Shown here one piece after another: positions 44,864 through 63,207 of a stretch of 64,000 nt of DNA. The first letter of the stretch is position 1, and each line of letters begins with the position of its first letter. The stretch is from NCBI GenBank assembly GCA_044229975.1, contig JBGARZ010000023.1, positions 32,001 to 96,000 of the forward strand, given 5' to 3'. The translations under genes and the position numbers were made by a program. The notes beneath the pieces were generated by a model. The model was not told the DNA's origin and made no database searches. It worked only from the letters and a program-made list of their open reading frames with translations. Source of the DNA: Polyangiales bacterium (GTDB lineage Bacteria; Myxococcota_A; Polyangia; Polyangiales; Ga0077539).

Positions 44864-44889
44864 TGTAATGCCTCCGGGAAGTCTGCGTC
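44864..44889 (+). promoter_or_regulatory. ECF-type promoter TGTAAT-N16-CGTC upstream of the cupredoxin gene
   Basis: One of five copies with identical spacing. Confidence 0.75.
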
Positions 44890-44930
44890 TGTAGGGATGA
44901 ACGGCGGCAGGTCCGCCCGGAGGTGACGGC

Positions 44931-45326
44931 ATGACGACGCAACGAGGAATGCGGTGGGTGTTGGGCGCGGCGCTGGGCCTCGCGCCCTGGATGATGCCGG
45001 CGGTGGCGCGGGCGCAGGTCCCGGCGGGCGCCGCCGTCCGCGAGATCGAGGTGGTGGTGGACGGTGGCTACCAGCCCGCGCGCGTCGAGGTCGCGGCGGG
45101 CGAGCGTGTGCGGCTGCGCTTCGTCCGCCGCGACTACGGCGGCTGCACGCGCGAGGTGGTGTTCCCGACGCTGGGCCTGCGGCGCGAGCTGCCCACCGGC
45201 CGACCCGTGACGGTGGACCTGCCCGCCCTGCCGGCGGGCGAGACGCCCTTCGAGTGCGGGATGGGCATGGTGCGCGGCGTCGTGGTGGTCCGCGCGGCGC
45301 CCACCGCCGCCGGTTCGCGCCCGTAG
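44931..45326 (+). CDS. Secreted cupredoxin-domain protein (CupA-like)
   Basis: GGAGG RBS; signal peptide; GGYQP..GC..FECGMGMVRG. Confidence 0.9.
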   Translation: MTTQRGMRWVLGAALGLAPWMMPAVARAQVPAGAAVREIEVVVDGGYQPARVEVAAGERVRLRFVRRDYGGCTREVVFPTLGLRRELPTGRPVTVDLPALPAGETPFECGMGMVRGVVVVRAAPTAAGSRP

Positions 45327-45344
45327 GCCGTCGCGGAGGAGCCC

Positions 45345-45995
45345 GTGCCGACCCGTCCACGCTACGTCCCCGCGCTGGGCTTCCGCGCGCTCACGCCGCT
45401 CTACGACCTCGCGGTCCGGCTGACCACGCGCGAGGCCCTCTTCCGCGATCGCCTGGTGCGCGCCGCAGCCGTGGGGCCCGGGGAGCGCGTGCTCGACCTC
45501 GCCTGCGGCACCGGCTCGACCTCGGTCCTCTTGCAGCAGCGCCAGCCGTCCGCGGCGGTCTGTGGCCTCGACATCGACCCGGAGGTCCTCGTGCGCGCCC
45601 GGCGGAAGGCGGACCGCCTGGCGCTCCCGATCCGCTTCGAGGAGCGCTCCGCCACCGACCCACTGGACGACCTCGGCCCCTTCGACGTGGCGGTGTCGAG
45701 CCTCTTCTTCCACCACCTCGACGACGGCGCGAAGGTGCGCGCGCTCGCCAACGTCCGCGCGGCCCTGCGCGACGGCGGGCGCCTGCACGTCGTGGACTGG
45801 GGGCGCCCGAGCGGCGTTCGTACGGGCCTCGGGTTCCGCCTCGTGCGCCTCCTGGACGGGGCGGACAACACGGCCGCGAGCGCGCGCGGCACCTTTCCCG
45901 ACCTCGTCACGGCGGCCGGATTCCGCGACGTCGCCGAGACTGACAGCCTGGACACCGCGCTGGGGACACTGCGGTTCTTCCGCGCCACGGTGTGA
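45345..45995 (+). CDS. Class I SAM-dependent methyltransferase
   Basis: LTPLYD, VLDLACGTG, SSLFFHHL. Confidence 0.9.
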   Translation: MPTRPRYVPALGFRALTPLYDLAVRLTTREALFRDRLVRAAAVGPGERVLDLACGTGSTSVLLQQRQPSAAVCGLDIDPEVLVRARRKADRLALPIRFEERSATDPLDDLGPFDVAVSSLFFHHLDDGAKVRALANVRAALRDGGRLHVVDWGRPSGVRTGLGFRLVRLLDGADNTAASARGTFPDLVTAAGFRDVAETDSLDTALGTLRFFRATV

Positions 45996-46189
45996 GCGCC
46001 GCGGGCCGGTGCCGATCGGGCGAGGTGCGGGCGGCCGACCCGATGGCCTCCGCGCCAGTGCTGGTTGCTGCCATGCCGTTGGGCGAACAGGGCGGCGCGG
46101 GCGACTGCGCGGGGCCGACGCTCCGCACCTGCTTCGTGTAGGTACCGTTGTCGGCAGGAATGTCTGCCTTTCGGAGACGGAGAATCACC

Positions 46190-46669
46190 ATGAACCATCG
46201 CTCGGGCTTCGGGGCCTGCATCGCGCCGTGCCTCCTCATGGCGGCGTGCGCGTCCCGTCCTCCCGCCTCGACGCCCCCCGTGACGCAGACCAGCGGCGGC
46301 GAAGTCGTCCATCACGCCGCGGGCGCGCACCACGCGCCGGTCTTTCCGCCGGGGCCGATCGCCGAGATGTGGGACGCGCTCCGGCCGCTGACCCACGGGC
46401 GCGCGGGGTCGGTCCCCACAGAGCGCGACGGTCGCATCTGCGCTCGGGTCGATACGCTTCGTCAGCGCGCTGGCGTGCTCGCCGCAGCGCCCGTCCCGGC
46501 CGGGGCGGAGTCACGCGCCGATGCGTGGCGCGCCAGCACGACGCGGCTCGTGCGCGAGGCGGATGCGCTCGTCGCGTCGTGCGCGGACCCCACGCGCGCC
46601 GGGGCGTTCGAGCGTCTGGAGGCGCTGCATGTCACCTTTCACGAACTCACGGAGGACCTGCCCCCCTGA
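46190..46669 (+). CDS. Helical lipoprotein with His motifs
   Basis: GGAG RBS; lipobox MAAC; HHAAGAHH; C-terminal LHVTFHEL. Confidence 0.7.
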   Translation: MNHRSGFGACIAPCLLMAACASRPPASTPPVTQTSGGEVVHHAAGAHHAPVFPPGPIAEMWDALRPLTHGRAGSVPTERDGRICARVDTLRQRAGVLAAAPVPAGAESRADAWRASTTRLVREADALVASCADPTRAGAFERLEALHVTFHELTEDLPP

Positions 46670-46766
46670 CGTTTCAGCGCCTGGTAGGCTCCCGGGCGCT
46701 CGCCCGTGCGGGTCGCGACAACGTTGTCGGGATCGTCGCGAACCCCTACCCTGCCCCATGGGTGTA

Positions 46767-60431: not shown

Positions 60432-62810
60432 ATGGACCATCAGGCTCACGCGTCCCACCACCACCACGCTCCCGCCCAGGGCGGGCCGCCCGCAGCCGGC
60501 GAGACCGTCAAGGATCCGGTCTGCGGCATGGACGTGTCGCCCGTGACCGCGAAGGAGCACCACGACTGGGGCGGGCGCACCTGGCACTTCTGCAGCACCC
60601 GCTGCGCGGAGAAGTTCCGCGCCGACCCCGCGCGCTACGCCGAACCCGCGGCGGCCCCCGTCGCGCCGCGCGCGAAGCCGACGACCGAGGCGGTCGAATA
60701 CACCTGCCCGATGCACCCCGAGGTCGTGCGCTCGGGGCCCGGCAGCTGCCCGATCTGCGGCATGGCCCTGGAGCCCCGCGCGCCCGTCGCACCGACGGAG
60801 GGCGACGACCCCGAGCTCGCGAGCATGCAGCGACGCCTCGTGGTGAGCGCGGCGATCACGGTGCCGCTGTTCGCCCTCGCCATGGGCGCGATGATCCCCG
60901 GCGACCCGCTCGGACACCTCCTCCCCTCGCACCTGCACAACGGGGTCGAGCTCGCGCTCGCCACGCCGGTGGTGCTCTGGGGCGCGTGGCCCTTCTTCGT
61001 GCGCGCCTGGCAGTCGCTCGTGAACCGCCATCTCAACATGTTCACGCTGATCGGCCTCGGCGTCGGGGTGGCCTACGGGTACAGCGTCGTCGCGACCCTC
61101 GCGCCGGGCCTCTTCCCGGCGGCCTTCCGTGGCCACGGGGGGCGGGTGGCGGTGTACTTCGAGGCCGCCGCGGTGATCGTCACGCTGGTGCTGGTCGGCC
61201 AGGTGCTCGAGCTCCGCGCGCGCAGCCGCACCGGCGCCGCCATCCGGGCCCTGCTCGGGCTGGCACCCAAGACGGCCCGGCGCCTGCGCGACGACGGCGC
61301 GGAGGAGGACGTCCCGCTCGACGCCGTGCAACCGGGCGACCGGCTTCGGGTGCGCCCGGGCGAGAAGGTGCCCGTGGACGGCGTCGTGCTGGAAGGCGCG
61401 AGCAGCCTCGACGAGTCCATGATCACGGGCGAGCCCATGCCCGTGGAGAAGCACGCGGGCGACCGCGTCGTCGGGGCGACGCTCAACGGCACCGGCGCGC
61501 TCGTGATGCGCGCCGAGAAGGTCGGGCGCGACACGCTGCTCGCGCGCATCGTCGCCATGGTGGCCGACGCCCAGCGCAGCCGCGCCCCCATCCAGCGCCT
61601 CACCGACACGGTCGCGGGCTACTTCGTGCCTGCCGTGATCCTGGTCGCGGTGCTCACCTTCGCGGCGTGGTCGCTCTGGGGCCCGGAGCCCCGCCTCGCG
61701 TACGCCCTCGTCAACGCGGTCGCCGTCCTGATCATCGCGTGCCCCTGCGCGCTCGGACTCGCCACCCCGATGTCGATTATGGTGGCGACGGGGCGCGGCG
61801 CGACGGCCGGGGTCCTCTTTCGCAACGCCGAGGCGATCGAGGTGCTGCGCTCGGTCGATACGCTCGTCCTCGACAAGACCGGCACGCTCACCGAGGGGCG
61901 GCCGAAGCTCGTCGCCGTGGAGTCGTCCGCGGGGGTCGAGGAGGCCGAGCTCCTGCGCCTCGCGGCCAGCCTGGAGCAGGGCAGCGAGCATCCGCTGGCC
62001 GCGGCCCTCGTCGCGGGCGCCAGGGAGCGCGGCCTCACCCTCACCGGCGCGGAGCACTTCGCGTCGGTGACCGGCAAGGGCGTCACCGGCCGCGTGGGCG
62101 ATCGTGCGGTCGCGCTGGGCAACAAGGCGCTGATGCTGGACGTGGGCGCCTCCGTCGGCACCCTCGACGCGCGGGCGGAGGCGCTGCGGGCGGAGGGGCA
62201 GACGGTGATGTTCGTGGCCGTCAACGGCGCACTCGCGGGCCTCGTCGGCGTCGCCGACCCGATCAAGGAGACGGCGGCCGAGGCGCTCAAGGCGCTGCGC
62301 GGAGAGGGTCTGCGCATCGTGATGCTCACCGGCGACAGCCGGACGACGGCCGAGGCGGTGGGGCGCAAACTCGGCATCGACGAGGTGATCGCCGGAGTGC
62401 TGCCCGACCAGAAGGCCGAGGCGGTGAAGCGCCTGCAGTCCGAGGGACGCCGCGTGGCGATGGCGGGCGACGGCATCAACGACGCGCCCGCGCTCGCCCA
62501 GGCCGACGTCGGCGTCGCGATGGGCACCGGCGCCGACGTGGCGATGGAGAGCGCGGGCGTAACGCTGGTGGGGGGCGACCTGCGGGGCCTCGTGCGGGCG
62601 CGCCGGCTCAGCCGCGCCACGATGGCCAACATCCGGCAGAACCTCGCCTTCGCCTTCGGCTACAACGCCCTCGGGGTGCCCGTCGCGGCCGGAGTGCTCT
62701 ACCCGCTCACCGGCCTGCTGCTCAGCCCGATGCTGGCCGCCGCGGCCATGAGCTTGAGCTCCGTCTCCGTCATCGCCAACGCTCTCCGCCTGCGCCGCGT
62801 GCGCCTGTGA
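60432..62810 (+). CDS. copA: Cu/Ag P1B-1 ATPase with YHS and heavy-metal-binding (YTCPMHP) domains
   Basis: [50 protein letters not shown]. Confidence 0.95.
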
Positions 62811-62822
62811 GGTCGATGCGGC

Positions 62823-62848
62823 TGTAAGGCACCGAGGGGGCCTGCGTC
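62823..62848 (+). promoter_or_regulatory. ECF-type promoter TGTAAG-N16-CGTC upstream of copZ
   Basis: tgtaag-gcaccgagggggcctg-cgtc. Confidence 0.7.
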
Positions 62849-62896
62849 TGCCTTGATGCGAGCCAAAGCAACGCGGCCCGCAGGAGCGACGAAACC

Positions 62897-63121
62897 ATGA
62901 ACTCCAACGAGACCCTGCTCGACGTCCGCGGCATGAACTGCGGCTCGTGCGTCCGCCACATTTCCCAGGCACTCGACGCGCTCGACGGCGTCGAGGAGGT
63001 CCACCCCTCGCTGCCCGACAAGACCGTCCGCGTCCGGCACGACCCGGCGCGGGTGAGCGCCGAGCAGCTCGCCGGCGCGCTGACCGCGAAGGGCTACCCC
63101 GCCGCCGCGCGCGCCGCGTGA
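62897..63121 (+). CDS. copZ: CopZ-like HMA copper chaperone
   Basis: GMNCGSC HMA motif, terminal GY; AGGAG RBS. Confidence 0.92.
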   Translation: MNSNETLLDVRGMNCGSCVRHISQALDALDGVEEVHPSLPDKTVRVRHDPARVSAEQLAGALTAKGYPAAARAA

Positions 63122-63181
63122 ATCGACCCCGGCCGGGTCACAGGTCGGCCGCGCAGCCGTAGAGCCTGAGCCCGCTTCGGC

Positions 63182-63207
63182 TGTAATCCCCACCCACCAC
63201 GCGCGTC
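63182..63207 (+). promoter_or_regulatory. ECF-type promoter TGTAAT-N16-CGTC upstream of the lipoprotein-TolC operon
   Basis: tgtaat-ccccacccaccacgcg-cgtc. Confidence 0.75.

Follow-up and report, generated by a model that had tools for sequence, protein, structure and literature searches.

The window analysed here, a stretch of 64,000 nt from the genome of a Polyangiales bacterium, carries an island of copper genes in which the motif TGTAAK-N16-CGTC stands before five transcription units, and it raises the question of which sigma factor would read that motif. A candidate is encoded within the island, at 50962-51507, and resembles CorE of Myxococcus xanthus, the model case of a sigma factor that is itself the metal sensor. 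According to the accessible parts of the CorE papers, copper, proposed to be Cu(II), activates CorE via its Cys tail and CxC linker without an anti-sigma factor, Cu(I) turns it off so that a pulse results, and the CorE promoter is a hand-made prediction only. The motif precedes all five copper units and recurs beside Cys-tailed sigma factors across phyla, and is thus most likely a CorE promoter. We consider it very probable from these sequence comparisons that TGTAAK-N16-CGTC serves CorE-type (former ECF44) sigma factors as their -35/-10 promoter, and that the five copies represent the copper regulon of the 50962-51507 CorE and its two paralogues.

The motif and the genes behind it

An earlier sequence-only reading had described five motif copies in the right orientation with an exact 16-bp spacer. 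All five were found again as exact matches, while 100 shuffled sequences averaged 0.03 matches and never held more than 1, and spacers of 13-15 or 17-20 gave zero matches within the window. The sites, with their matrix scores, and the genes concerned are as follows.

44864..44889, plus strand: predicted CorE promoter 1, TGTAAT-N16-CGTC; score 29.4; 41 nt from CGTC to the cupredoxin start
44931..45326, plus strand: cupredoxin-like protein, 131 aa, PF13473; 49% identity to the cupredoxin of the CorE-orthologue locus
45345..45995, plus strand: class I SAM methyltransferase, 216 aa; begins 18 nt past the cupredoxin gene, without its own site
50962..51507, minus strand: CorE-type ECF sigma factor, 181 aa; CxC at 103/105; tail Cys 163, 164, 167, 172, 175 and 177; Ala168
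51552..53846, minus strand: CopB-like copper P1B-type ATPase, HMA domain at the N terminus; leads the ATPase-corE unit
53875..53900, minus strand: predicted CorE promoter 2; score 21.7; 28 nt from CGTC to the ATPase start
60311..60336, plus strand: predicted CorE promoter 3; score 27.2; 95 nt from CGTC to the second ATPase start
60432..62810, plus strand: CopA-like copper P1B-type ATPase carrying YHS and HMBD domains; 63% identity to the ATPase in a cuoA-corSR-type cluster
62823..62848, plus strand: predicted CorE promoter 4, TGTAAG-N16-CGTC; score 26.2; 48 nt from CGTC to the copZ start
62897..63121, plus strand: CopZ-like HMA chaperone, 74 aa, by domain content and locus homology
63182..63207, plus strand: predicted CorE promoter 5; score 25.3; 16 nt from CGTC to the small lipoprotein start
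63224..63484, plus strand: small putative lipoprotein, 86 aa, His-bearing tail; paralogues behind sites on contigs C27 and C31
63474..64000, plus strand: TolC-family gene, 5' part; 42% identity to the CorE-orthologue locus

All five sites have the form of an ECF promoter, that is, oriented bipartite -35/-10 elements with a fixed spacer and a start codon shortly downstream. Four continue as CGTCTG, in agreement with the earlier description, and the fifth reads CGTCGG. The starts of the czc-like, BlaI, SOD-like, methyltransferase, corE and cusC genes reached a matrix score of at most 0.7, against 21.7-29.4 at the five sites; the maximum over all 12 other starts tested was 3.7. The motif is therefore absent before the czc and BlaI operons, as had been claimed. 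The partial TGCAAT reported before cusCBA was also seen, and was rejected as a site because its -10 partner is absent.

The gene identities proposed earlier are confirmed, except that the name copA does not suit the ATPase upstream of corE: its nearest counterpart at the M. xanthus-type locus is the CopB equivalent, and that of the second, YHS-type ATPase is the CopA equivalent. A CuoB-like multicopper oxidase (62% identity to the CorE-orthologue locus) follows the TolC-family gene past the window end. The small lipoprotein matched no Pfam or NCBIfam family. The methyltransferase and the lipoprotein had been placed in the copper response, and sites do precede both units. The methyltransferase, which by its position is likely to be co-transcribed with the cupredoxin, is a minority member of the regulon: homologues (at least 40% identity) occur at 5 of 151 loci and stand behind a site in two (L031, L127).

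The CorE-type sigma factor and its paralogues

The 50962-51507 protein consists of sigma-2 and sigma-4.2 regions only (PF04542 above cut-off; PF08281 just below it, E 4.6e-5) and is 58% identical to a CorE orthologue. Its best NCBIfam match is SigZ, below cut-off. Cys103 and Cys105 align with Cys120/122 of the orthologue, the CxC of CorE-like (ECF44) factors; in the numbering of PMC3107203, Cys164, 167, 175 and 177 correspond to the four invariant tail cysteines (181, 184, 192, 194) and Cys172 to Cys189. Unlike M. xanthus CorE, it has no Cys206 equivalent and carries an extra Cys163. Ala168 falls at position 185/174, with Ala as in copper CorE and not Cys as in Cd/Zn CorE2; PMC4937300 reports that changing CorE Ala185 to Cys shifts metal specificity, and Ala occupies the position in 114 of 135 CorE homologues. 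By its residues, the protein is predicted to be a copper-type CorE. A search for a solved CorE structure found none, distant ECFs being the top PDB matches, and a plasmid collection held no CorE homologue at E<=1e-15.

In a sequence-only search for a cognate anti-sigma factor, to which a distant one is invisible, the gene before corE proved to be the ATPase, and the membrane protein at 49567-50148 travels with a second ECF gene just downstream of corE, not with corE. Since corE has no site at its own start, it would be reachable only as the second gene behind the ATPase, via promoter 2, and CorE would raise its own level through this unit. The autoregulation ascribed to CorE-type factors is thus to be qualified: CorE shows it only in part (PMC3107203) and CorE2 not at all (PMC6851896), and promoter 2 is the only predicted route to it here.

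The genome holds three CorE copies (100, 97 and 75% identity) whose recognition-helix residues are identical. The window copy therefore probably does not have the sites to itself, and the three paralogues probably share the promoter. Once active, CorE would start transcription a few bases past CGTC, and the products would be two Cu-exporting ATPases, the CopZ chaperone, the cupredoxin (with the methyltransferase) and the lipoprotein-TolC-multicopper oxidase unit.

Distribution in the host genome and in CorE-orthologue genomes

A genome-wide scan, as the earlier reading had proposed, returned 11 exact matches to TGTAAK-N16-CGTC, against 0-6 for each other spacer; the three corE loci account for 10 of these matches. 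When a matrix from 129 sites of other genomes was run over the 10-Mb genome, the 10 corE-locus sites ranked within its top 11. A strong site that stands alone, at C4:198695, is antisense to an unrelated reading frame, whose start it overlaps from inside, and was treated as chance. Among the 11 P-type ATPase matches in the genome, only the four at corE loci have a site.

Four related genomes with true CorE orthologues, which are close kin and not independent, were held out, and the matrix was trained on other genomes. All four encode a 211-aa protein with Cys at 120, 122, 181, 184, 189, 192, 194 and 206, as in the published CorE numbering. In each held-out 20-kb locus the four highest-scoring sites precede the two ATPase genes, the cupredoxin gene and the HMA gene, and lipoprotein-TolC-oxidase-corE has a fifth exact site before it. 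In M. xanthus, copB, cuoB, MXAN_3427 and copA are reported to need CorE (PMC3107203; PMC3707914), and the units chosen by the matrix are those that are CorE-dependent by M. xanthus genetics. Two held-out CorE-like loci (L152, L153) had no site near the gene.

The five units of the window map one to one on the CorE-orthologue locus with homologues of 42-63% identity; the small lipoproteins share position, with no significant BLAST similarity. M. xanthus CorE (MXAN_3426; ECF44) likewise has sigma-2 and sigma-4 regions, a CxC linker and a Cys tail whose first conserved Cys lies 59 residues from CxC, and its regulon shares with the window the two P1B ATPases, the HMA chaperone, the cupredoxin and the lipoprotein-TolC-oxidase unit. 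The adjacent cusCBA has no site, which is consistent with the lack of reported CorE dependence for Cus systems. The window differs in its methyltransferase behind the cupredoxin, in having three near-equivalent paralogues in one genome, and in the position of corE, behind the ATPase and not, as in the M. xanthus type, behind the oxidase. The CorE features, the conserved motif and the one-to-one units make the window a fresh instance of the known CorE regulon; its gene set is not new, and as a CorE copper island the locus is unremarkable. The promoter consensus, by sequence comparison, would be sharper than that in the accessible text of the M. xanthus CorE papers: the putative site in the 2011 paper is anchored on AAC, whereas the sites of the window and the orthologue loci read TGTAAG/T, without AAC. 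As for start positions, the Cappable-seq supplements of PMC8844925 list none of six searched MXAN genes, and a single raw RNA run mapped on L147 gave flat, uninformative coverage on both strands.

The motif across CorE-homologue loci

In 115 homologue loci TGTAA-N17-CGTC was counted 104 times, and the pattern at each of 12 other spacers 1-8 times. TGTAA-N17-CGT lies within 4.5 kb at 103 of 135 CorE-homologue loci from several phyla, leaving 32 without it; other spacers were found at 0-29 of these loci, the N13 peak being a shadow of the N17 sites (28 of 31 matches). Relative to the 135 corE genes, a site lies on the same strand within 800 nt upstream in 42 cases, further upstream in 16, elsewhere in the locus only in 50, and nowhere in 27. 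The first genes behind 142 sites are 41 P1B ATPases, 40 Cys-rich peptides, 18 small HMA/YHS proteins, 8 corE, 7 cupredoxins, 1 methyltransferase and 27 others, the last including TolC, an oxidase, HlyD, MbnP and DUF326. The motif follows CorE homologues across phyla and, at loci with true CorE orthologues, marks the CorE-dependent units, which supports the assignment to the 50962-51507 sigma factor as its predicted promoter.

At the level of whole genomes, a strict pattern was present in 19 of 36 CorE-positive and 24 of 164 CorE-negative genomes (reversed control, 35 of 201), counted by hand with a pattern derived partly from positive loci and with at least G189 and G195 as false negatives; in G195 a site pair pointed to a corE overlooked in the first search. 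Nine of 10 re-tested motif-positive genomes had no corE, so single genome-wide matches are often chance, and counts of a loose pattern in five genomes showed no excess over the reversed control.

CorE-type factors share the Cys-rich tail and an apparent lack of an anti-sigma factor with ECF238 (ECF24 + ECF44; PMC7826278 supplement). That 2021 classification describes ECF238 promoter motifs as 'not conserved' and its members as not autoregulated, whereas the motif is conserved in the CxC clade sampled here. CorE itself is ungrouped in the classification, and the part of the PMC7776599 datasets examined has no row for MXAN_3426 or taxon 246197.

Alternative explanations

Another sigma factor of the genome might read the motif, for instance the second ECF. 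Candidates are many (54 sigma-region-2 matches), the sites on C29 and C31 have the second ECF within 10 kb, and CGTC is a common ECF -10 element: the predicted promoters of ECF120 (TGTAACAAA/TCGTCAT) and ECF41 (TGTCACA/CGTC) have a similar -35 start, although these are other groups, set apart by context and compared by predicted motif. Yet no site scoring at least 20 lies near the other 49 sigma genes, and the second ECF is missing at C27, where sites and corE stand. Its close homologue occurs at 1 of 151 corE loci, and its own loci lack the motif in 23 of 23 cases (top score 10.2) and carry GTCAC-N17-CTA[G/C] as their own promoter in 22 of 23. This explanation is therefore highly improbable. 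An operator of a CopY, CsoR or CueR type regulator overlapping a housekeeping promoter is hardly credible: TGTA is half of the CopY box TACAnnTGTA given in PMC10141476, and a BlaI/CopY-family gene lies at 43388-43795, but its unit has no site, no sigma-70-like promoter was found in 44000-63900, and the motif is non-palindromic and strictly oriented with a fixed 16-nt spacer low in information.

It is also conceivable, though quite improbable, that the promoter belongs to CorE while the signal is Zn/Cd, low oxygen or redox rather than copper. PMC3107203 reports weak activation of CorE by Cd and Zn, the window sigma has its extra Cys163 and a tail without His, and the locus sits in a mixed-metal island. 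Against this stand Ala168, the match of CorE Ala185, and the czc-like unit without a site; moreover, the genes behind the 142 sites are mostly P1B ATPases, Cys-rich peptides and HMA/YHS proteins, with no storage-polymer gene seen among the other first genes, and among the oxidants and metals tried on cuoB in PMC3107203, Cd and Zn alone mimicked copper. A copper-responsive CorE promoter remains our preferred reading.

The -35 base, CorE2 and the Cys-rich peptides

Comparison of the homologue alignment with the sites showed that the sixth -35 base covaries with one sigma-4 residue, largely in agreement with the mutagenesis in Dataset S3 of PMC7776599; an exception is Arg at the -31-reading position, which goes with T in 2 of 3 loci, contrary to the code. 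From alignment and published mutagenesis, Val147 of the window sigma would favour T at -34 and Ala146 G/T at -31, preferences that would account for GTAAK. CorE2 (MXAN_5263; Cd/Zn; PMC4937300) belongs to the same family, but has Cys at the specificity position and Lys at the -31-reading position. Its orthologues have TGTAAC-N16/17-CGTC, with C and not G/T at -31, directly before the regulated cation-efflux gene, whereas the predicted targets of the window CorE are copper ATPases.

We favour, with moderate confidence, a joint reading in which the whole CxC (ECF44) clade uses TGTAA(K/C)-N16-CGTC and the printed AAC-anchored CorE site is misplaced. Within one cell, a single sigma-4 residue (Ala/Gly/Ser versus Lys) would hold the CorE (copper) and CorE2 (Cd/Zn) regulons separate, and the promoter would expose unannotated His-poor bacterial metallothioneins, which would often share a transcript with the sensor and buffer copper in a self-limiting way. 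This suggests a means by which CorE and CorE2 escape cross-talk. A precise consensus would permit point-mutation tests in M. xanthus, in vitro transcription, structures with defined DNA and copper biosensors, and would allow regulons to be predicted in Acidobacteriota, Planctomycetota, Gemmatimonadota and myxobacteria that are uncultured. The consensus also flags small members that annotation overlooks, namely the lipoprotein, the cupredoxin, the methyltransferase and the metallothionein-like peptides.

The Cys-rich, His-poor peptides stand behind the promoter at 40 of 135 loci and have 22-66 residues, with one of 106. None of the 40 matched a Pfam metallothionein model at E<=0.05, and an Atlas search with one peptide gave only leads below 0.9 (unnamed clusters, eukaryotic metallothioneins). 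Ribosome-binding sites were seen by eye, without a count, before the 40 reading frames.

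Predicted CorE-type sites in the window and its genome

The window contains five copies of TGTAAK-N16-CGTC, in the places and on the strands proposed by the sequence-only reading, and each copy stands shortly before a gene start.

Sites in the window and the genes that follow them
44864, plus strand: ends 41 nt before the start of a cupredoxin
53900-53875, minus strand: ends 28 nt before the start of an HMA-type P1B ATPase
60311, plus strand: ends 95 nt before the start of a YHS-type P1B ATPase
62823, plus strand: ends 48 nt before the start of a CopZ-like protein
63182, plus strand: ends 16 nt before the start of a small putative lipoprotein, in a unit that runs beyond the window end with TolC and then a multicopper oxidase

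Shuffling of the window gave a mean of 0.03 matches and a maximum of one (100 shuffles), and spacers of 13-15 and 17-20 gave zero matches in the window. As that reading had also noted, four of the five copies continue as CGTCTG, no site precedes the czc-like and BlaI units, and cusC is preceded by TGCAAT alone. Its interpretation is right: the locus is a new instance of the known CorE copper regulon, and it is very likely that the five sites function as CorE promoters.

The genome has three corE-type genes, and ten of its 11 exact sites lie at them. A genome-wide scan, which had been suggested as a check, was made with a matrix trained on 129 sites, all from other genomes, and it placed these ten within the top 11 of 10 Mb. 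Scores of at least 18 were reached by 13 sites at the true spacer; moving the spacer by 1 or 2 left 1-2 such sites. Of 54 sigma genes, just five have sites scoring at least 20 nearby: the three corE genes and two adjoining genes for a second ECF sigma factor. Four of the 11 P-type ATPase matches in the genome are preceded by a site, and these four belong to corE loci. The eleventh exact site was set aside, being antisense and inside the start of an unrelated gene.

Additional corE loci in the same genome
G000:C31:96251-101118: near-duplicate (97%), three sites
G000:C27:121756-125441: more distant (75%), two exact sites in divergent orientation plus a degenerate one (TGTCAT) ahead of ATPase-corE

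Between its ATPase and copZ, the C31 locus also carries a gene of MarR type and a weak match to cytochrome c'.

Orthologous loci and published genetics

The window sigma factor, a 181-aa protein encoded at 50962-51507, is 58% identical to a 211-aa CorE orthologue whose cysteines sit exactly where published for Myxococcus xanthus CorE, and its Ala168 aligns with CorE Ala185, the mark of the copper type, at which CorE2 has Cys (accessible parts of PMC3107203, PMC4937300). This orthologue is present in four closely related genomes of a test set from another order, fetched after matrix construction. In each 20-kb orthologue locus the top four scores (17-23) precede genes for an HMA ATPase of 761 aa, a cupredoxin, an HMA protein of 74 aa and a YHS ATPase of 821 aa; the last clusters with genes for an oxidase, a sigma-54 regulator and a histidine kinase. 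Judged by gene order and domain content rather than by accession, the site-led units, including one with a fifth site described below, correspond to copB, MXAN_3427, the copA gene of the curA cluster and the MXAN_3424-cuoB unit, for which the need for CorE has been demonstrated by lacZ fusions (PMC3107203; PMC3707914, as far as accessible). The one unit with a degenerate -10 (CGTG) is copA, which is partly CorE-dependent. The window's units are 42-63% identical to their counterparts. At two CorE-like loci of the test set, L152 and L153, the gene lacks a nearby site.

In the orthologue loci a fifth exact copy, TGTAAG-N16-CGTC in poorer flanks (score 8.5), precedes lipoprotein-TolC-oxidase-corE. 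The window and the orthologue loci both have a lipoprotein-TolC-oxidase unit led by its own site; their lipoproteins have no alignable sequence but agree in position, in a signal that bears Cys and in a tail rich in His. The SAM methyltransferase, also assigned to the copper response by the sequence-only reading, lacks both a site and a family match over the cut-off, and follows the site-led cupredoxin by 18 nt. Homologues of at least 40% identity occur at 5 of 151 loci: the one at L031 comes directly after a site, the one at L127 follows the ATPase of a unit led by a site, and the other three have no site closely ahead of them. It is plausibly a regulon member, and a minor one.

Conservation of the motif

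Homologue loci came from a class-wide search, the best 80 of 406 confirmed genome-scan stretches and 20 further loci; they share descent, so that the counts should not be read as independent trials. A set of 115 unique loci contains TGTAA-N17-CGTC 104 times, versus 1-8 times at each of twelve other spacers; a second peak at N13 (29 loci) proved a shadow of the same sites (28/31 matches). TGTAA-N17-CGT lies within 4.5 kb at 103 of 135 loci and is absent at 32; by record labels, it is found in Acidobacteriota (17/27), Planctomycetota (5/6), Gemmatimonadota (7/8) and myxobacteria (20/25). The extended consensus is (C/G)TGTAA(T/G)G-N14-(G)CGTC(T/A)GC.

A same-strand site lies at most 800 nt upstream of the corE homologue at 42/135 loci and at 0.8-4.5 kb in 16 more. 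At 33/135 homologue genes a site immediately follows the stop codon and serves the gene beyond. This variable placement is probably why the 2021 classification lists no conserved motif for ECF238, which joins ECF24 and ECF44 (accessible text of PMC7826278). At L028 and L044 a consensus site just 3' of corE is aimed back into its 3' end, which could reflect an antisense RNA with negative feedback or a rearrangement remnant. A divergent site pair lies 2.5 kb before a two-piece corE (frameshift or sequencing error) at G195:C3:552168-555318.

The first genes behind 142 sites encode P1B ATPases (41), Cys-rich peptides (40), small HMA/YHS proteins (18), CorE (8), cupredoxins (7), a methyltransferase (1) and others (27). 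A scan of 52 of these 142 ORFs, chosen for having no obvious ATPase, corE or CopZ identity, showed several of the others to be TolC, oxidase, HlyD, MbnP or DUF326 proteins.

Which factor reads the motif

The motif might be read by the second ECF factor, encoded just downstream of the window's corE (50145-50675), rather than by CorE. Against this, the C27 corE locus lacks that gene, a close homologue occurs at one of 151 corE loci, and 23 second-ECF loci are without the motif, 22 of them carrying GTCAC-N17-CTA(G/C) instead. A repressor operator is likewise a poor fit to a motif that is oriented, non-palindromic and fixed in spacing.

Recognition by CorE also agrees largely with known residue preferences. 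Ala146 of the window sigma factor aligns with Arg171 (reads -31) and Val147 with Ser172 (reads -34) of an RpoE-family sequence. Published mutagenesis gives base preferences at position 171 of G 0.47/T 0.32 for Ala, G 0.43/T 0.35 for Gly, G 0.55 for Ser and C 0.98 for Lys; with Val at 172, a residue found at 128/135 homologue loci, the top base is T, 0.39 (PMC7776599, Dataset S3, in its accessible part). The sixth -35 base was T 40/G 3 with Ala, T 44/G 7/A 1 with Gly, G 9/T 1 with Ser, C 5/5 with Lys (four of those loci related), C 4/G 4 with Asn and, contrary to expectation, T 2/C 1 with Arg. This covariation, in which lineage is confounded with residue, supports the prediction that the sigma factor itself would read the motif.

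The pairing of Lys with C is also seen in CorE2 orthologues (189 aa; Cys108, 110, 174 and 178), in which TGTAAC-N16-CGTC (N17 in one of three) precedes a cation-efflux gene at 34 nt, the gene type that CorE2 regulates in M. xanthus. Two CorE2-like factors with a Cys-Cys tail, L156:10329 and L159:9705, have Ala at the -31-reading position, and their TGTAAG/T sites precede a membrane protein without an assigned family.

Published work already covers CorE, how it acts and most of its regulon. Its sites were predicted by hand in 2011 as AAC in the -35 region and G 16-18 nt on (accessible part of PMC3107203). All five orthologue-locus sites read TGTAAG, and no AAC occurs within 160 nt before the CopB equivalent at L147; therefore the published alignment probably differs from our sites. 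TGTAAK-N16-CGTC was not found assigned to CorE/ECF44 in the accessible literature, including the accessible parts of PMC4937300, PMC6851896, PMC8999054, PMC10141476 and PMC7826278, and other PMC7776599 datasets, ECF Hub logos or subscription papers may hold it. The motif provides a precise promoter prediction, open to testing, for a sensor that has no mapped promoter in the reachable literature; a candidate single-residue rule that sets CorE apart from CorE2, and the small members of the regulon, add to its value.

Short Cys-rich peptides

The ORFs directly behind the motif at 40 loci encode 22-66 aa (one 106 aa) with 6-26 Cys and 0-2 His, and are preceded by ribosome-binding words, judged by eye.

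Examples of Cys-rich ORFs
L116:9914-9979
L017:9598-9672
L082:9825-9935
L069:7504-7641
L126:9321-9638

The test for such ORFs was passed at 42/142 sites versus 39/3000 random positions, 10/383 at TGTAA without CGT and 1/142 on the reverse strand. None of the 40 had a Pfam match, and none of ten tried was found as an exact sequence in a 15-billion protein collection. The window's own sites are followed by no such ORF. These ORFs are putative metallothionein-like genes.

Other genes around the locus

A second ECF module, separate from CorE, occupies 49567-50921 (minus strand).

Second ECF module
50921-50895, minus strand: its own predicted promoter, GGTCAC-N17-CTAG
50688-50870, minus strand: 60-aa Cys-rich peptide with a signal-like N-terminus
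50145-50675, minus strand: ECF sigma factor
49567-50148, minus strand: membrane protein

This trio recurs, and the GTCAC motif is present at 22/23 second-ECF loci; the peptide and membrane protein match no Pfam or NCBIfam family. A mixed-metal island (22916-43795) holds two sets of TolC-HlyD-RND genes: one is accompanied by an ArsR-type gene and a P-type ATPase, the other follows a BlaI/peptidase M56 pair and comes with an EamA gene. The unit starts tested there are not preceded by a site. Site-free as well are the genes for a protein with a Tat-like leader (by eye) and a C-terminal Fe/Mn SOD domain only (43946-44671) and for a 160-aa putative lipoprotein without a family, downstream of the methyltransferase (46187-46669). 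Beyond the window end, the extended locus (L003:6344-8382 and 10517-12081) carries another multicopper oxidase gene together with a plastocyanin-like one on the opposite strand. It also has two paired genes that, by eye, we take to resemble DUF692/DUF2063.
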